The translations under genes were made by a program, and so were the position numbers. Below, piece by piece: positions 5,803 through 55,602 of a stretch of 64,000 nucleotides of DNA (position 1 is its first letter; every line of letters starts with the position of its first letter). The notes beneath the pieces were generated by a model that did no database searches, was not told where the DNA came from, and was given only the letters and a program-made list of their open reading frames with translations. The stretch lies in NCBI RefSeq assembly GCF_058153355.1, contig NZ_CM177019.1. One strand, 5' to 3'.

Positions 5803-6033
5803 TTATTTATGACGGTATTTCAGCGCGCCGCTCGGGCACGTATCAATCACTTTAACCACAGTGGCAACGTCGACTTCATCCGGCATGATCCACGGCTTTC
5901 GTTTGAGATTAAATAACTTGCCGTTGCCACGTACGCAATTGCCAGAATGCTGACATATCGCAGTGTTGAAATAGACATCGATCTTTTCGCCGGTATAACA
6001 GCGATAACCCCCGTCCAGTAGCGCCTGATCCAT
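5803..6033 (-). CDS. yjdI: Small Cys-rich protein YjdI (76 aa)
   Basis: Translation [39 protein letters not shown]...; divergent from dcuS. Confidence 0.85.
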
Positions 6034-6213
6034 GACCTTCCCTCTCTCATCAGTATGGTTTTCACTATAAGCATAGCCCTGGAATCTTCATACAGCACTG
6101 GCAGTTTCCGTTGCCAGAGTCTCTTCCCCTATATAGCCAATCATTCTTACTCCCTTTGAATTACCCGCCTCATCAGAGATAATGCTTAAGAAATTTGTCA
6201 CACAAGGAAGCTG

Positions 6214-7845
6214 ATGAGACATTCATTGCCCTACCGCATATTACGCAAACGTCCGATGAAATTGAGTACCACTGTGATCTTAATGGTCAGCGCGGTACTG
6301 TTCTCGGTGCTATTGGTGGTGCATCTGATTTACTTCTCGCAAATCAGTGATATGACGCGAGACGGGCTAGCCAACAAGGCACTGGCAGTGGCGCGTACTC
6401 TCGCCGACTCGCCGGAAATCCGTCAGGGCTTGCAGAAAAAACCGCAGGAGAGCGGCATCCAGGCCATCGCGGAAGCCGTGCGCAAACGCAACGATCTGCT
6501 GTTTATTGTCGTTACCGATATGCAAAGTCTTCGCTACTCGCATCCTGAAGCCCAGCGTATTGGTCAGCCATTTAAAGGTGATGACATCCTTAAAGCGCTG
6601 AATGGCGAAGAAAATGTCGCTATCAATCGCGGTTTTCTGGCGCAGGCTTTACGCGTATTTACCCCCATCTACGATGAAAATCATAAACAAATTGGCGTGG
6701 TGGCGATCGGCCTTGAGTTAAGTCGCGTGACCCAACAGATCAATGACAGTCGCTGGAGCATCATCTGGTCGGTATTATTTGGCATGCTGGTCGGGCTGAT
6801 TGGCACCTGCATTCTGGTTAAGGTACTGAAAAAAATCCTTTTCGGCCTGGAACCCTACGAAATCTCCACGCTGTTTGAGCAACGCCAGGCCATGTTGCAG
6901 TCGATCAAAGAAGGCGTCGTTGCCGTGGACGATCGCGGCGAGGTCACGCTGATCAACGATGCCGCACAAGAATTGCTGAATTACCGTAAGTCGCAGGACG
7001 ATGAGAAACTGTCGACGCTAAGCCACTCGTGGTCACAGGTGGTAGATGTCTCGGAAGTGTTACGCGACGGTACCCCGCGGCGCGACGAAGAGATTACGAT
7101 TAAAGACCGGCTATTACTGATCAACACCGTTCCGGTGCGCAGTAATGGCGTTATCATCGGTGCCATTTCAACCTTCAGGGACAAAACTGAAGTACGTAAA
7201 CTGATGCAGCGACTCGATGGTCTGGTCAACTATGCTGACGCACTTCGTGAACGATCCCACGAATTTATGAATAAATTGCATGTGATTCTCGGATTATTGC
7301 ATCTGAAGAGTTATAAGCAGTTGGAAGATTACATTCTCAAAACAGCCAATAACTATCAGGAAGAGATTGGCTCTCTGCTGGGTAAGATCAAATCTCCGGT
7401 TATCGCTGGTTTTTTAATCAGCAAGATTAACCGCGCGACCGATTTAGGCCATACGCTGATTTTAAACAGTGAAAGCCAGCTGCCAGACAGCGGCAGTGAG
7501 GACCAGGTCGCGACGCTGATTACCACGTTGGGAAATCTGATAGAAAACGCGCTGGAAGCATTAGGGCCGGAACCCGGTGGCGAAATTAGCGTAACATTGC
7601 ACTACCGTCACGGCTGGCTGCACTGTGAAGTTAACGATGATGGACCGGGGATCGCACCCGACAAAATCGATCACATTTTTGACAAAGGTGTCTCGACAAA
7701 AGGAAGCGAGCGAGGCGTCGGTTTAGCACTTGTCAAACAACAGGTAGAAAATCTCGGCGGCAACATCGCCGTGGAATCGGAACCCGGGATTTTCACACAA
7801 TTTTTTGTCCAGATACCCTGGGACGGGGAGAGGTCGAACAGATGA
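6214..7845 (+). CDS. dcuS: C4-dicarboxylate sensor histidine kinase DcuS (543 aa)
   Basis: Two transmembrane segments flanking a periplasmic sensor domain, PAS and HATPase regions; recognised sequence. Confidence 0.93.
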   Translation: MRHSLPYRILRKRPMKLSTTVILMVSAVLFSVLLVVHLIYFSQISDMTRDGLANKALAVARTLADSPEIRQGLQKKPQESGIQAIAEAVRKRNDLLFIVVTDMQSLRYSHPEAQRIGQPFKGDDILKALNGEENVAINRGFLAQALRVFTPIYDENHKQIGVVAIGLELSRVTQQINDSRWSIIWSVLFGMLVGLIGTCILVKVLKKILFGLEPYEISTLFEQRQAMLQSIKEGVVAVDDRGEVTLINDAAQELLNYRKSQDDEKLSTLSHSWSQVVDVSEVLRDGTPRRDEEITIKDRLLLINTVPVRSNGVIIGAISTFRDKTEVRKLMQRLDGLVNYADALRERSHEFMNKLHVILGLLHLKSYKQLEDYILKTANNYQEEIGSLLGKIKSPVIAGFLISKINRATDLGHTLILNSESQLPDSGSEDQVATLITTLGNLIENALEALGPEPGGEISVTLHYRHGWLHCEVNDDGPGIAPDKIDHIFDKGVSTKGSERGVGLALVKQQVENLGGNIAVESEPGIFTQFFVQIPWDGERSNR

Positions 7846-8561
7846 TCAATGTATTAATTATCGATGACGACGCAATGGTCGCGGAGCTGAATCGCCGATA
7901 CGTGGCACAAATCCCAGGCTTTCAATGCTGTGGAACAGCCTCGACGCTGGAGAAAGCCAAAGAGATTATCTTCAATAGCGATACGCCTATCGACCTGATA
8001 TTGCTCGATATCTATATGCAAAAAGAGAACGGGCTCGATTTACTGCCTGTCCTGCATAACGCGCGTTGCAAAAGTGATGTGATTGTCATCTCCTCCGCAG
8101 CCGATGCGGCAACCATTAAAGATTCGCTGCATTACGGTGTCGTGGATTACCTGATCAAACCCTTCCAGGCTTCCCGCTTTGAAGAGGCGCTCACCGGCTG
8201 GCGGCAAAAGAAAATGGCGCTGGAAAAACATCAGTATTATGACCAGGCCGAGCTTGATCAGCTAATCCACGGCAGCAGCTCCAACGAGCAGGATCCTCGT
8301 CGCTTGCCAAAAGGCTTAACGCCGCAGACGTTACGCACGCTGTGCCAGTGGATTGACGCGCATCAGGACTATGAGTTTTCAACCGACGAGCTGGCTAACG
8401 AGGTTAACATCTCGCGTGTTTCCTGCCGTAAATACCTCATTTGGCTGGTCAACTGCCACATCTTGTTCACCAGTATCCATTATGGCGTCACGGGGCGTCC
8501 AGTTTACCGTTACCGTATTCAGGCAGAACACTACTCACTACTGAAACAATATTGCCAATAA
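7842..8561 (+). CDS. dcuR: Response regulator DcuR (239 aa)
   Basis: Receiver domain (ILLDIYM...) plus C-terminal helix-turn-helix; start overlaps the dcuS stop (ATGA). Confidence 0.93.
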   Translation: MINVLIIDDDAMVAELNRRYVAQIPGFQCCGTASTLEKAKEIIFNSDTPIDLILLDIYMQKENGLDLLPVLHNARCKSDVIVISSAADAATIKDSLHYGVVDYLIKPFQASRFEEALTGWRQKKMALEKHQYYDQAELDQLIHGSSSNEQDPRRLPKGLTPQTLRTLCQWIDAHQDYEFSTDELANEVNISRVSCRKYLIWLVNCHILFTSIHYGVTGRPVYRYRIQAEHYSLLKQYCQ

Positions 8562-22958: not shown

Positions 22959-24050
22959 ATGCGTTTTCTGCGCCGACCAATATCGCTGCGCCAACGGCTG
23001 ATATTGACCATCGGGGCCATTTTGTTGGTGTTTGAGCTGATCAGCGTCTTCTGGCTATGGCATGAAAGTACCGAGCAGATTCAGCTGTTTGAGCAGGCGC
23101 TACGCGACAATCGTAACAACGATCGCCACATCATGCGTGAGATCCGCGAGGCGGTCGCCAGCCTGATTGTCCCTGGCGTCTTTATGGTCAGCCTGACGCT
23201 ATTTATCTGCTATCAGGCGGTACGCCGCATCACCCGCCCGCTGGCGGAGCTGCAAAAAGAGCTGGAAGCGCGCACCGCCGACAACTTAACGCCCATTGCC
23301 ATTCACAGCGCCACCCTCGAAATCGAAGCGGTGGTTTCAGCGTTAAACGATCTGGTCAGTCGCCTGACCAACACGCTGGATAACGAAAGGTTGTTTACCG
23401 CTGACGTCGCGCACGAACTGCGAACGCCACTGGCGGGGGTGCGTTTGCATCTGGAACTGCTGGCGAAAACGCATCACATTGATGTAGCACCGTTAGTGGC
23501 ACGACTTGATCAGATGATGGAGAGTGTCTCCCAGCTACTGCAACTGGCGCGTGCCGGACAGTCATTTTCTTCCGGTAATTATCAACATGTAAAACTGCTG
23601 GAAGATGTCATTCTCCCCTCGTATGACGAACTCAGTACCATGCTCGACCAGCGCCAGCAAACCCTGCTATTGCCAGAGAGCGCCGCCGACATCACCGTTC
23701 AGGGTGATGCAACCCTGCTGCGGATGTTATTGCGAAACCTGGTAGAAAACGCCCATCGTTACAGCCCGCAAGGCAGCAACATTATGATTAAGCTGCAAGA
23801 CGATGGCGGAGCGGTCATGGCCGTTGAAGATGAAGGGCCGGGTATTGATGAGAGTAAATGTGGAGAGTTGAGTAAAGCGTTTGTACGAATGGACAGCCGT
23901 TATGGCGGGATTGGTCTGGGGTTAAGTATTGTCAGCCGCATTACACAGTTGCATCACGGGCAGTTTTTCCTGCAAAACCGGCAAGAGACTTCTGGCACAC
24001 GGGCCTGGATACGGCTGAAAAAAGATCAGTACGTGGCAAACCAGATATAA
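22959..24050 (+). CDS. basS: Sensor histidine kinase BasS (PmrB), 363 aa
   Basis: Recognised sequence M(R)FLRRPISLRQRLILTIGAILLVFELISVFW...; ATG at 22959 chosen over the in-frame TTG at 22950. Confidence 0.9.
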   Translation: MRFLRRPISLRQRLILTIGAILLVFELISVFWLWHESTEQIQLFEQALRDNRNNDRHIMREIREAVASLIVPGVFMVSLTLFICYQAVRRITRPLAELQKELEARTADNLTPIAIHSATLEIEAVVSALNDLVSRLTNTLDNERLFTADVAHELRTPLAGVRLHLELLAKTHHIDVAPLVARLDQMMESVSQLLQLARAGQSFSSGNYQHVKLLEDVILPSYDELSTMLDQRQQTLLLPESAADITVQGDATLLRMLLRNLVENAHRYSPQGSNIMIKLQDDGGAVMAVEDEGPGIDESKCGELSKAFVRMDSRYGGIGLGLSIVSRITQLHHGQFFLQNRQETSGTRAWIRLKKDQYVANQI

Positions 24051-24115
24051 AGAAAGCTGCTGACCACCAGCACGCTGAACACGGTAGTTAAACTTTCATA
24101 AACACGGTTTTTCAT
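24026..24115 (-). CDS. pmrR: Small membrane protein PmrR (29 aa, MKNRVYESLTTVFSVLVVSSFLYIWFATY), antisense to the last codons of basS
   Basis: Short minus-strand ORF translated by hand (below the ORF-track length cutoff); GGAGGAGAG Shine-Dalgarno upstream; PmrA box further upstream. Confidence 0.7.
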   Translation of the reverse strand: MKNRVYESLTTVFSVLVVSSFLYIWFATY

Positions 24116-24159
24116 TGCACTCTCCTCCGTTAACCTGGAGGAGAGTATGCGCGTCAGAG

Positions 24160-24176
24160 ATTAAGTGAACCTTAAG
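24160..24176 (-). promoter_or_regulatory. PmrA box-like repeat (minus strand CTTAAG-GTTCA-CTTAAT) upstream of pmrR
   Basis: Hexamer direct repeat with 5-bp spacer seen on the minus strand about 45 nt upstream of the pmrR start. Confidence 0.5.
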
Positions 24177-24226
24177 AGTTCAATTGGCCTAATAAGACAG
24201 CGTCACATCAGGCCATCCGTTTCAGC

Positions 24227-29867: not shown

Positions 29868-31170
<1,303 letters not shown>

Positions 31171-31200
31171 CATGCCTGCAATCTGGGAAACCGGGGTAGA

Positions 31201-31289
<89 letters not shown>

Positions 31290-39104: not shown

Positions 39105-39252
39105 GGTGCCGGATGCGGCGTAAACGCCTTATCCGGCTTTTCAGGCCGCAACGCCTGATGGCGCTTCGCTTATCAGGCCTACAAAACCATCGTAATACGT
39201 TGATATTGATTCATTTGTAGGCCGGATAAGGCGCAGCCGCCATCCGGCAAAA
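39105..39252. repeat. REP/BIME cluster between phnK and phnL
   Basis: Several REP units (gccggatgcggcgtaaacgccttatccggc; gcctgatggcgcttcgcttatcaggcctac; tgtaggccggataaggcgcagccgccatccggca); contains an ATCAGGCCTAC 11-mer at about 39172-39182. Confidence 0.85.
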
Positions 39253-42854: not shown

Positions 42855-43184
42855 TCACCGCCCATACTCATCTTCCATTCTCCGCTCTTCATCTTCTAGC
42901 TGCCGACGCTCCTGATCCAGCTGGCGCTGGCGATCGTCCAGCTGCCTGCGGCGATCTTCAAACTGGCGGCGGCGATCGTCATATTGTCTGCGCCGATCGT
43001 CGTTCACTTCACGCTGCCAGCCGTCGTCGCGCGAATCTTCATAGTCTCGCCCACGGTCAGGGTTATAAGCATCGTTAATCGCCTGCTGAATATTGCCAAT
43101 GGTGTCGTCGATAATATCGGCCTGGGCCGGAACGGTGGACAGCGTGAGCAGGGTGAATAAAAGAAATAGCGGAAAACGTTTCAT
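42855..43184 (-). CDS. yjdP: Secreted Arg/Asp/Glu-rich repeat protein YjdP (109 aa)
   Basis: Signal peptide followed by low-complexity DDRRRQ.. repeats. Confidence 0.85.
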   Translation of the reverse strand: MKRFPLFLLFTLLTLSTVPAQADIIDDTIGNIQQAINDAYNPDRGRDYEDSRDDGWQREVNDDRRRQYDDRRRQFEDRRRQLDDRQRQLDQERRQLEDEERRMEDEYGR

Positions 43185-51053: not shown

Positions 51054-53201
51054 ATGAAAAAAGTCGTCACGGTTTGCCCCTATTGCGCATCAGGTTGCAA
51101 AATCAACCTGGTCGTCGATAACGGCAAAATCGTCCGGGCGGAGGCAGCGCAGGGCAAAACCAACCAGGGTACCCTGTGTCTGAAGGGGTATTATGGCTGG
51201 GATTTCATTAACGATACCCAGATCCTGACCCCGCGCCTGAAAACCCCCATGATTCGTCGCCAGCGTGGCGGCAAACTCGAACCTGTTTCCTGGGATGAGG
51301 CACTGAATTACGTTGCCGAGCGCCTGAGCGCCATCAAAGAGAAGTACGGTCCGGATGCCATCCAGACGACCGGCTCCTCGCGTGGTACGGGTAACGAAAC
51401 CAACTATGTAATGCAAAAATTTGCGCGCGCCGTTATTGGTACCAATAACGTTGACTGCTGCGCTCGCGTCTGACACGGCCCATCGGTTGCAGGTCTGCAC
51501 CAATCGGTCGGTAATGGCGCAATGAGCAATGCTATTAACGAAATTGATAATACCGATTTAGTGTTCGTTTTCGGGTACAACCCGGCGGATTCCCACCCTA
51601 TCGTGGCGAATCACGTAATTAACGCTAAACGTAACGGGGCGAAAATTATCGTCTGCGATCCGCGCAAAATTGAAACCGCGCGCATTGCTGACATGCACAT
51701 TGCACTGAAAAACGGCTCGAATATCGCGCTGTTGAATGCGATGGGCCATGTCATTATTGAAGAAAATCTGTACGACAAAGCGTTCGTCGCTTCCCGTACA
51801 GAAGGCTTTGAAGAGTATCGTAAAATCGTTGAAGGCTACACGCCGGAGTCGGTTGAAGATATCACCGGCGTCAGCGCCAGTGAGATTCGTCAGGCGGCGC
51901 GGATGTATGCCCAGGCGAAAAGCGCCGCCATCCTGTGGGGCATGGGTGTAACCCAGTTCTACCAGGGCGTGGAAACCGTGCGTTCTCTGACCAGCCTCGC
52001 GATGCTGACTGGTAACCTCGGTAAGCCGCATGCGGGTGTAAACCCGGTTCGTGGTCAAAACAACGTGCAGGGGGCCTGCGATATGGGCGCACTGCCAGAT
52101 ACTTACCCTGGCTACCAGTATGTGAAAGATCCGGCTAACCGCGAGAAATTCGCCAAAGCCTGGGGTGTAGAGAGTCTGCCTGCTCATACCGGTTATCGCA
52201 TCAGCGAGCTGCCGCACCGCGCAGCGCATGGTGAAGTGCGTGCCGCGTACATTATGGGCGAAGATCCGCTACAAACTGACGCGGAGCTGTCGGCAGTACG
52301 TAAAGCCTTTGAAGATCTGGAACTGGTCATCGTTCAGGACATCTTTATGACCAAAACCGCGTCGGCGGCGGATGTCATTTTACCGTCAACGTCGTGGGGC
52401 GAGCATGAAGGCGTGTTTACTGCGGCTGACCGTGGCTTCCAGCGTTTCTTCAAAGCAGTTGAACCGAAATGGGATCTGAAAACGGACTGGCAGATTATCA
52501 GTGAAATCGCCACCCGTATGGGTTATCCGATGCACTACAACAACACCCAGGAGATCTGGGATGAGTTGCGTCATCTGTGCCCGGATTTCTACGGTGCGAC
52601 TTACGAGAAAATGGGCGAACTGGGCTTCATTCAGTGGCCTTGTCGCGATACTTCAGATGCCGATCAGGGGACTTCTTATCTGTTTAAAGAGAAGTTTGAT
52701 ACTCCGAACGGTCTGGCGCAGTTCTTCACCTGCGACTGGGTAGCGCCAATCGACAAACTCACCGACGAGTATCCGATGGTACTGTCAACGGTGCGTGAAG
52801 TCGGTCACTACTCTTGCCGTTCGATGACCGGTAACTGTGCGGCACTGGCGGCGCTGGCTGATGAACCTGGCTACGCACAAATCAATACCGAAGACGCCAA
52901 ACGTCTGGGTATTGAAGATGAGGCATTGGTTTGGGTGCACTCGCGTAAAGGCAAAATTATCACCCGTGCGCAGGTCAGCGATCGTCCGAACAAAGGGGCG
53001 ATTTACATGACCTACCAGTGGTGGATTGGTGCCTGTAACGAGCTGGTTACCGAAAACTTAAGCCCGATTACGAAAACGCCGGAATACAAATACTGCGCCG
53101 TGCGCGTCGAGCCGATCGCCGATCAGCGCGCCGCCGAGCAGTACGTGATTGACGAGTACAACAAGTTGAAAACTCGCCTGCGCGAAGCGGCATTGGCGTA
53201 A
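51054..53201 (+). CDS. fdhF: Formate dehydrogenase H, selenopolypeptide FdhF (715 aa) with in-frame UGA (Sec140) at 51471-51473
   Basis: The two ORF-track pieces (51054-51473, 51522-53201) are in the same frame, separated only by TGA; N-terminal Cys cluster CPYCASGC; Mo-bisPGD enzyme family. Confidence 0.92.
51471..51520 (+). promoter_or_regulatory. Selenocysteine insertion stem-loop immediately 3' of the fdhF UGA
   Basis: Sequence TGACACGGCCCATCGGTTGCAGGTCTGCACCAATCGGTCGG matches the fdhF SelB-binding hairpin as I recall it. Confidence 0.8.
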
Positions 53202-53294: not shown

Positions 53295-53984
53295 ATGAAA
53301 AAAATTATCGCATTGATGTTGTTTTTGACATTCTTTGCCCATGCGAACGGCTCCGAGCCTGGCAGTCAGTATCTCAAGGCTGCAGAGGCTGGAGACCGAC
53401 GCGCACAATATTTTCTTGCCGACAGCTGGTTTAGCTCCGGCGATTTGAGCAAAGCCGAATATTGGGCACAGAAAGCCGCCGACAGCGGTGATGCTGATGC
53501 CTGCGCGCTGTTGGCGCAGATCAAAATCACCAATCCGGTCAGTCTGGACTATCCACAAGCAAAAGTTCTTGCAGAGAAAGCGGCGCAAGCGGGCAGTAAA
53601 GAAGGTGAAGTGACGCTGGCGCATATTCTGGTGAATACTCAAGCGGGTAAACCGGATTATCCAAAGGCGATTTCGCTGTTAGAAAACGCCTCGGAAGATC
53701 TGGAGAACGACTCCGCCGTCGATGCCCAAATGCTGCTTGGTTTGATTTACGCCAACGGCGTGGGCATTAAGGCCGACGATGACAAGGCAACCTGGTATTT
53801 CAAACGCAGCTCTGCGATTTCACGAACCGGTTATTCCGAGTACTGGGCGGGAATGATGTTCTTAAATGGTGAAGAAGGTTTTATCGAGAAGAACAAACAG
53901 AAGGCGCTGCACTGGCTGAACCTGAGCTGTATGGAAGGGTTTGATACCGGGTGTGAAGAGTTTGAAAAATTAACTAACGGTTAA
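53295..53984 (+). CDS. yjcO: Sel1-repeat periplasmic protein YjcO (229 aa)
   Basis: Signal peptide; Sel1/TPR-like repeats. Confidence 0.88.
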   Translation: MKKIIALMLFLTFFAHANGSEPGSQYLKAAEAGDRRAQYFLADSWFSSGDLSKAEYWAQKAADSGDADACALLAQIKITNPVSLDYPQAKVLAEKAAQAGSKEGEVTLAHILVNTQAGKPDYPKAISLLENASEDLENDSAVDAQMLLGLIYANGVGIKADDDKATWYFKRSSAISRTGYSEYWAGMMFLNGEEGFIEKNKQKALHWLNLSCMEGFDTGCEEFEKLTNG

Positions 53985-53985
53985 T

Positions 53986-54250
53986 GTAGGCCTGATAAGA
54001 CGCGGTAAGCGTCGCATCAGATATTAATGTCGGATGCGGCGTAAACGCCTTATCCGACCTACAAAATCACCCTAAATCAAGCTATTGCGCAGTCTGGCGT
54101 AGGCCTGATAAGACGCGGCAAGCGTCGCATCAGGCATTGATGTCGGATGCGGCGTAAACGCCTTATCCGACCTACAAAATCACGCTAAATCAGGCTATTG
54201 CGCAGTCTGGCGTAGGCCTGATAAGACGCGGCAAGCGTCGCATCAGGCAT
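53986..54250. repeat. Tandem BIME array: about 2.3 copies of a roughly 114-bp unit built from inverted REP pairs
   Basis: Unit gtaggcctgataagacgcggcaagcgtcgcatcag...gtcggatgcggcgtaaacgccttatccgacctacaaaatcac... recurs at about 53986, 54100 and 54213. Confidence 0.9.
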
Positions 54251-54288
54251 CCACACATTGCCGGGTGTATGTCCCCGGCAATCCTCAA

Positions 54289-55602
54289 TTATTGATCCGC
54301 AGTTTTATCAAATTTGCCCAGCACTTCGCGCTCATAAGCCAGCGCTTTCTTACGGTCAAATTTGTGTTCCCACTTGGCAATCACCAGCACCGCCAGCGCA
54401 TTACCCACCACGTTCAGCGCAGTACGCGCCATGTCGAGGATACGGTCAACACCGGCAATAAACGCCAGACCTTCCAGCGGGATCCCTACGCTGCCCAGCG
54501 TTGCCAGCAACACCACAAACGACACGCCCGGCACGCCAGCAATCCCTTTCGAGGTCACCATCAGCGTCAGCACCAGAATGATTTCCTGCCAGATGGACAG
54601 GTCAATACCATACAGTTGAGCGATGAAGATAGCGGCAATACTTTGATATAGCGTTGAACCATCAAGGTTAAAAGAGTAACCGGTCGGCACCACGAAACTG
54701 GTGATCGACGCCGGTGCACCGTAGGCTTCCATCTTCTCAATAATTCGCGGCAGCACGCTTTCAGAACTGGCAGTGGAGTACGCCAGAATCAGCTCATCTT
54801 TCAGAATACGAATCAGGATCCAGACGCTTAACCCGCACAGGCGCGCCACAATTCCCAGCACTACCAGCGCGAAGAACAGAATGGCGAAATGCACCAGCAG
54901 CACCAGTTTCGCCAGTGGCCACAGAGACGAGAAACCAAAGTTAGCCACCGTCACCGCAATCAGCGCAAACACACCTACCGGCGCGTAACGCATCACCATG
55001 TGAGTCACTTTAAACATGGTTTCAGAAATGGAGCGGAACACGGTCACCAGCGGTTCACGATGCGTTGCGGGCAGGGAGGAAAGCCCCAGACCAAACAGTA
55101 CCGAGAAGAAGATGATCGGTAACATTTCGCCTTTCGCCATCGACGCCACAATATTCGTCGGCACCAGAGACAAAATCGTGCCCATAATACCGTGGGAACT
55201 GCTCTGTACCGCTTCTGTAGTGCTCTGATATTTCGAGATATCGACGGTCGCCAGCTGCGACATATCCACCCCGGCACCGGGCTGGAAGACGTTCGCCAGG
55301 GTGATCCCCAGAATGATGGCGACAGTGGTGATCACCTCGAAATAGATAATGGTTTTCGCGCCAATACGCCCGAGCTGTTTGGCATCACCAACACCCGCGA
55401 TACCCACCACCAGCGTGGAGATCACAATCGGCACAACAATCATTTTGATCAGATGGATGAAGATATCACCCGCCGGAGAGAGCAAATTGACGACCAGCCA
55501 TTCGCGACTGTCGCTATGGTAGTGCAGGTAGCTTCCCAGGAGAATGCCCAGCACCATAGCAAACAGAATCTGCCAGGCCAGGCTGAATTTTATATTTTTC
55601 AT
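54289..55602 (-). CDS. gltP: Glutamate/aspartate:H+ symporter GltP (437 aa)
   Basis: Recognised DAACS-family transporter sequence MKNIKFSLAWQILFAMVLGILLGSYLHYHS... Confidence 0.93.
   Translation of the reverse strand: MKNIKFSLAWQILFAMVLGILLGSYLHYHSDSREWLVVNLLSPAGDIFIHLIKMIVVPIVISTLVVGIAGVGDAKQLGRIGAKTIIYFEVITTVAIILGITLANVFQPGAGVDMSQLATVDISKYQSTTEAVQSSSHGIMGTILSLVPTNIVASMAKGEMLPIIFFSVLFGLGLSSLPATHREPLVTVFRSISETMFKVTHMVMRYAPVGVFALIAVTVANFGFSSLWPLAKLVLLVHFAILFFALVVLGIVARLCGLSVWILIRILKDELILAYSTASSESVLPRIIEKMEAYGAPASITSFVVPTGYSFNLDGSTLYQSIAAIFIAQLYGIDLSIWQEIILVLTLMVTSKGIAGVPGVSFVVLLATLGSVGIPLEGLAFIAGVDRILDMARTALNVVGNALAVLVIAKWEHKFDRKKALAYEREVLGKFDKTADQ

Follow-up and report, generated by a model that had tools for sequence, protein, structure and literature searches.

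The tandem array at positions 53986-54250 of the window (the whole stretch of DNA that was analysed, 64,000 nt in length) is, with a probability of about 0.93, the gltP-yjcO BIME, a REP cluster of the BIME-2 or atypical-BIME type. Both the element and its locus are already known, and the finding is a real and ordinary one. The window is E. coli-like: the best complete RefSeq E. coli genome matches it at 99.0% over 8 kb, and none is identical. An assembly artefact was rejected because the same organisation of the array is seen again in thousands of complete genomes.

Tandem Repeats Finder describes the array as a repeat with a period of 113, present in 2.3 copies with 96% matches, no indels and a score of 488; the copy number is also given as 2.35, that is, two and a third 113-bp units arranged head-to-tail. 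The first 35 nt of the unit occur in three in-register copies, at 53986, 54099 and 54212. The two complete units are 95% identical in a repeat search, with 6 differing positions between them, and what is present of the third unit does not differ from unit 2. The initial annotation, which had read the region between yjcO and gltP as a BIME amplified in tandem, each unit holding an inverted REP pair and differing from the others by only a few substitutions, is borne out by these results, and the self-alignment that it had proposed as a check shows periodicity across the entire array. Its copy number of about 2.3 and its coordinates also stand, while its period of about 114 bp is corrected to 113 bp.

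Each unit consists, in order, of a z2 REP, a short linker of 6-8 nt, an inverted y REP and a 36-nt tail-to-tail linker (Table 1). The z2 REP is about 37 nt long and carries GTAG at its 5′ end, the inverted y REP is 34 nt long and carries CTAC at its 3′ end, and the two stand head to head across the short linker, which is ATTGAT (6 nt) in unit 2 and 8 nt long in unit 1. A repeat search of the array with default seeds reported zero inverted repeats; the stems of the REPs are broken by mismatches and were therefore missed by such seeds, so that folding and an Rfam model were used instead.

The genes yjcO and gltP are convergent, and the array fills most of the 304-bp gap between their 3′ ends, with the first REP beginning 2 nt after the yjcO stop codon (TAA, 53982-53984). 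It is the sole sizeable tandem repeat in the 64-kb window. Elsewhere in the window, a 21-nt repeat of 3.9 copies was recorded at 42921-43001, within an ORF at 42855-43184 on the minus strand; fdhF lies further upstream, with a SECIS element (Rfam SECIS_2, 87.9 bits) at 51466-51520 on the plus strand, beside the in-frame UGA by which the ORF of fdhF is divided; and the sRNA STnc630 was located at 24019-24184 on the minus strand (182 bits).

Table 1. Features of the yjcO-gltP region, in coordinates of the window.
Feature	Position	Strand	Details
yjcO (Sel1-repeat protein)	53295..53984	+	ORF of 229 aa; named from the RefSeq annotation of homologous regions
Unit 1	53986..54098	+	113 bp; z2 REP 53986-54020, 8-nt short linker, y REP 54029-54062, 36-nt linker 54063-54098
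Unit 2	54099..54211	+	113 bp; z2 REP 54099-54135, ATTGAT 54136-54141, y REP 54142-54175, linker 54176-54211
Partial unit 3	54212..54250	+	terminal z2 REP 54212-54248, identical to the start of unit 2
IS621 target 11-mer ATCAGGCCTAC, copy 1	53986..53996	-	occupied in MRY15-117 and about 24 other genomes
IS621 target 11-mer, copy 2	54099..54109	-	homologous internal z2 REP occupied in N96 and 7 other records
IS621 target 11-mer, copy 3	54212..54222	-	exact match
y-z2 hairpin pair, unit 1	53989..54059	-	Rfam naRNA4 (RF02564), 68.1 bits
y-z2 hairpin pair, unit 2	54102..54172	-	Rfam naRNA4, 79 bits
IHF-core-like AATCAAGCTATTG, unit 1 linker	54075..54087	+	matches WATCAANNNNTTR and WATCARNNNNTTR
IHF-core-like AATCAGGCTATTG, unit 2 linker	54188..54200	+	matches WATCARNNNNTTR only
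Non-REP hairpin	54258..54283	-	9-bp stem ATTGCCGGG/CCCGGCAAT, 8-nt loop, 5 nt past the gltP stop codon
gltP (glutamate/aspartate:proton symporter)	54289..55602	-	ORF of 437 aa; NCBIfam equivalog NF008440, 905 bits

The plus strand of the array folds with a free energy of -138.1 kcal/mol (z = -9.0 against shuffles) and the minus strand with -142.6 kcal/mol (z = -6.7). On the minus strand, the y-z2 pairs of both units align to the entire y-linker-z2 model of naRNA4, with both hairpins intact and an inter-hairpin linker that falls 7 nt short of the model's, and both exceed its gathering score of 59.5 bits. The matches above the gathering score lie on the gltP-sense strand, and those on the plus strand are sub-threshold, at 48.8 and 39.5 bits. 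Further, a hairpin that is not made of REPs follows the gltP stop codon; across strains and in E. whittamii its stem is invariant and its loop variable, it is without a U-run after it, and it is probably the 3′-end structure of the gltP mRNA. An intrinsic-terminator-like site was looked for in the yjcO-gltP intergenic region, and none was found.

The name BIME-2 comes from the Gilson/Bachellier nomenclature. According to Ton-Hoang 2012 (PMC3333891), BIME-2 combine z2 and y REPs with a short S linker and occur in multiple tandem copies of strain-variable number; BIME-1 combine z1 and y REPs in a single copy, and their long L linker frequently contains an IHF site; and the 'atypical' ones are BIME-1/BIME-2 chimeras, the strain-variable copy number holding for BIME-2 and atypical BIMEs in general. 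The array follows the first of these descriptions: 37-nt z2 and 34-nt y REPs alternate in inverse orientation, as the naRNA4 hairpin alignment also indicates; the linkers of 6 and 8 nt are short (S) by length; and tandem copies vary between strains, with 2.3 here and from a single REP to 9 linkers elsewhere. The 36-nt linker, in turn, is found at the gltP-yjcO locus alone, as its genome-wide matches in K-12 number four, as many as there are linkers in the K-12 array. Because this linker is locus-specific, and not a dispersed motif, the array may be classed either as BIME-2 or, under the scheme of Ton-Hoang, as an atypical BIME. The exact locus has already been described, since part of the gltP-yjcO BIME of MG1655 (B319) served as a TnpAREP substrate in vitro, with four TnpAREP cleavage sites in its linker and with amplification models proposed (Ton-Hoang 2012, PMC3333891).

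Comparison across genomes supports the earlier claim that copy number differs between strains: some genomes have a single REP here, and others have as many as 9 linkers. When the linker was searched for on its own, 2,814 of 5,426 complete E. coli genomes proved to contain it, each with between 1 and 9 copies (median 4); about half of E. coli genomes have a lone z2 REP at the locus, the terminal one of partial unit 3, and about 48% are without a full unit. Alleles were then surveyed with a query consisting of the two flanks only, in 59 informative genomes evenly spaced down a ranking of 5,422 records; full-region BLAST was dropped for sizing long arrays because it did not join the repeated pieces. 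Among the surveyed genomes, 25 carry the single z2 REP allele and 8 carry about one unit, four of them in the O157 form, in which 12 nt of the linker are deleted; two units are found in 3 genomes, three units in another 3, and four units in 8. A second allele type, with different array ends, accounts for 12 genomes, with lengths of approximately 1, 2, 4, 6 and 7 units (n = 2, 1, 6, 2 and 1). One locus of each of these lengths was read, and representative alleles of the other types were also read directly. In SSGw2, MS1170, 4/1-1, AR_0017 and SCU-122 (loci L002-L006), which carry the second allele type, the array opens with a truncated z2 REP (GGTAGGCGCAGCAAACG...); in the closing z2 REP of this type, the stretch between TCTGGC and TCAGGC is deleted, at a microhomology-type junction.

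Whole units are gained and lost. The nearest relative by its flanks, 2020CK-00188 (99.6%), has an interval equal to that of the window minus exactly 226 bp, which is two units in register. The K-12 sublines DSM 498, J53, DH5alpha and TG1 carry 4.3 units; MG1655 and BL21(DE3) have 5.3, two neighbouring units being identical. In NC_000913.3 (4295795-4296435), unit 1 is 111 nt long, with CG missing from its y REP. A breseq call of '+CG at 4,296,380' in gltP/yjcO, at 100%, is routine in resequenced MG1655 stocks (PMC4330922), and it corresponds to this 2-nt gap in the reference. With its variable number of repeats, the locus is a source of confusion in resequencing.

Presence beyond E. coli was assessed by scanning one genome per species. 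The array is found at the same locus in two other Escherichia: in E. whittamii (5980-6220 of locus L010) the units are 117 nt long and a y REP comes first, and in Escherichia sp. E1V33 (7364-7930 of locus L011) there are five units and the array ends in a linker fused directly to the hairpin region. Because the same locus is occupied in both, the array predates E. coli. Two other matches were set aside. The one in Massilioclostridium is a chance match inside a coding region, and contig NZ_JAAIYA010000177.1 of Pyxidicoccus caerfyrddinensis (240 bp, coverage 0.53) holds gltP-yjcO BIME units only, of the MG1655/B type, and is almost certainly E. coli contamination of the myxobacterial assembly.

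A 2003 report by Choi is said to place the target sites of IS621 in z-type REPs. The naturally observed IS621 target is ATCAGGCCTAC, with a CT core (Durrant 2024). Several copies of this 11-mer had been remarked on at the outset, and the array contains three exact ones, one at the tail of each z2 REP and all on the minus strand, compared with 0.00 expected by shuffling; natural insertions exist at these sites in other genomes. Two predicted junctions were built, joining the right end of IS621 to the yjcO end or to the linker. The former gave one contiguous match in 25 genomes and the latter was found in 8 records at 95% identity or higher; overall, about 32 genome records have IS621 inserted precisely in REPs of the array. 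For example, in MRY15-117 the gltP-yjcO interval contains an annotated 'IS110-like element IS621 family transposase', N96 has a two-unit array with IS621 in its middle z2 REP, and the junctions in both read ATCAGGCCT/TGTAT...ACAGTATCT/AC, where the strokes mark the insertion boundaries. The conserved tail of the z2 REP is a natural IS621 target, and the array is a demonstrated natural landing pad for this bridge-RNA recombinase.

The genome analysed here holds both an IS621 copy and three free array targets. Its IS621 (29949-31228, plus strand) lies 24 kb from the array and is complete, at 1,280 bp counted with one CT core; the 326-aa ORF within it (30141-31121) is a full-length match to the IS621 transposase of PDB 8wt6 (E = 4.5e-218), the left end begins with TGTATTATCCC and the right end closes with ACAGTATCT. 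The insertion is at ATCAGGC-CT-AC, which is the same 11-mer, in the z2 REP of a single y-z2 BIME downstream of yjdM/phnA. This is the REP325 locus, present at 29871-29947 (plus strand) as one y-z2 unit that scores 97.1 bits against naRNA4 and is interrupted by IS621. MG1655 has six REP325 units (Qian 2015), and because the window has one, the REP325 locus is also copy-number variable. A fourth IS621 target, unoccupied, is located at 39172-39182 on the plus strand, in a BIME-1-like element (39110-39233) that is composed of a y REP, a 30-nt z1 REP (39154-39182), a 34-nt L linker (39183-39216) and another y REP; the L linker contains an IHF core, TATCAACGTATTA, at 39193-39205 on the minus strand.

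A mechanism can be proposed for how such an array acts and changes. Either convergent transcript would run into the array and fold into a chain of stable hairpins, which, going by the literature on the family, may serve as 3′-end barriers and attenuators for the yjcO and gltP mRNAs. PMC12306157 cites the observation that REPs at most 15 nt from a stop codon stall ribosomes and lower translation; the first REP, 2 nt past the yjcO stop codon, would fall into this class, reported to dampen translation. By analogy with other members of the family, the y REPs of the array would be of the type that gyrase cleaves. The gain and loss of whole units in register is the observed pattern, and we infer that it would arise when the 113-bp direct repeats pair out of alignment as the DNA is replicated, or by unequal recombination; TnpAREP, which cuts the B319 linker in vitro, may contribute. 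The array behaves as a variable-number tandem repeat at the level of lineages. The amplified part is dispensable, as about half of E. coli genomes have one z2 REP here.

Espeli and Boccard reportedly identified, in 1997, the gyrase-cleaved REP clusters as BIME-2. Sutormin 2019 (PMC6379681) found gyrase cleavage sites to be enriched in BIME-2, mainly in y REPs; the part of its supplement that was searched does not mention the gltP-yjcO locus. The initial annotation had called arrays of this kind known binding sites for gyrase and IHF; read as a statement about the family, the gyrase part holds for the y REPs of BIME-2, and the IHF part does not, as it belongs to the L linker of BIME-1. Judged from its linkers, IHF binding at the array is possible, and the whole array could then be a repeat that binds IHF, related to RIB/RIP (BIME-1) but present in multiple copies, with an IHF site in each 36-nt linker between REPs, although we consider this reading doubtful. 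The IHF consensus can be written as WATCARNNNNTTR, with R at position 6. Both full linkers match this form, that of unit 1 also matches the stricter WATCAANNNNTTR, and the cores lie 11-12 nt from the CTAC of the y REP, much as in the L linker at 39183-39216; the motif is, moreover, retained in K-12, E. whittamii and Escherichia sp. E1V33. However, the alleles of the second type (L002-L006) have C at the W position, the O157 allele has lost the core through its deletion, and the consensus by itself is found 7 times across the window, where 4.0 matches are expected. Documented IHF binding concerns the L linker of single-copy z1/y BIME-1, to which the 36-nt linker of the array is only weakly similar: 47 of 2,000 shuffles score as well, and homology between the two linkers was rejected as unconvincing.

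The hairpin pairs permit another reading, in which the array is a cluster of naRNA4-like RNA genes. Transcripts reading through from gltP would here give rise to RNAs with two hairpins (y and z2), and these, acting with HU, would bridge cruciforms and condense the nucleoid, on the model put forward for REP325. On the gltP-sense strand the units reach 79 and 68.1 bits, and HU-dependent condensation needs an RNA with two hairpins, y and z2 (Qian 2015); but the Rfam model is in effect a model of y-z2 BIME-2 and matches any such pair, the published phenotype is tied to REP325 and not to gltP-yjcO (Qian 2015), and the full unit is absent from this locus in nearly half of the genomes, so that we regard the reading as quite unlikely. 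A more serious contender, with a chance somewhat short of even, is that the amplification is selfish or neutral, a by-product of slippage, or of cutting and rejoining by TnpAREP (RAYT), that gives the host no function which the single ancestral REP lacks. The presence/absence polymorphism and the range of 0-9 copies argue for it, as do the in vitro cutting of the linker by TnpAREP at four sites and the amplification models that accompany it (Ton-Hoang 2012); by our reading of the sequences, the CT dinucleotides number four in the K-12 linker and three in the linkers of the window. The persistence of an array at the same locus in other Escherichia species argues against it. Neutral amplification is, however, compatible with the identification of the array as the gltP-yjcO BIME, which is the preferred reading, and does not compete with it as an exclusive alternative.

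As for what the array means, much is published already, namely REP/BIME clusters, their copy-number polymorphism, gyrase cleavage in BIME-2 and the targeting of z-type REPs by IS621, and the gltP-yjcO locus has already been used experimentally. One E. coli line evolved under amoxicillin has an amplicon of 164 kb and a duplicon of 86 kb that end at gltP/yjcO (PMC12625342), which suggests that the array can serve as a recombination endpoint. It is conceivable, though very improbable, that the number of units acts as a heritable dial, each unit contributing one gyrase-type y REP, one IHF-like site and two hairpins. If so, lineages with anywhere from none to 9 linkers would differ in supercoil insulation, in the 3′-end decay or translation of yjcO and gltP, or in their exposure to rearrangement by IS621, and this last exposure would be sharper in the present genome, given its nearby IS621 copy.

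Among known systems, the array resembles BIME-2 in its alternating inverse z2 and y REPs, its short head-to-head linker, its tandem copies, its position at intergenic 3′ ends and its strain-variable number; it differs from BIME-2 in that its 36-nt tail-to-tail linker is locus-specific and carries an IHF-like core. It agrees without difference with the IS621 target sites in z-type REPs, offering one target per z2 REP. With REP325 and naRNA4 it shares tandem y-z2 pairs with a constant spacer, both hairpins aligning above the gathering score; in contrast, REP325 is located at yjdM-yjdN, has an inter-hairpin linker of 13 nt compared with 6-8 nt in the gltP-yjcO array, and is the only one of the two with a demonstrated nucleoid phenotype. 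The likeness to BIME-1, RIB and RIP consists of two inverted REPs around a linker of about 35 nt with an IHF core consensus. Those elements, of which the window has an example at 39110-39233, have a z1 REP, a single copy and a conserved L linker, whereas the array has z2, is tandem and is only weakly L-like in its linker, which places it outside that class. The gltP-yjcO BIME of MG1655 (B319) has the same locus, unit, flanking genes and hairpin, with units that are 95-97% identical to those of the window; it differs in having 5.3 units, compared with 2.3 in the window, and in a few substitutions, such as A instead of T in GCGCAGTCTGGC.
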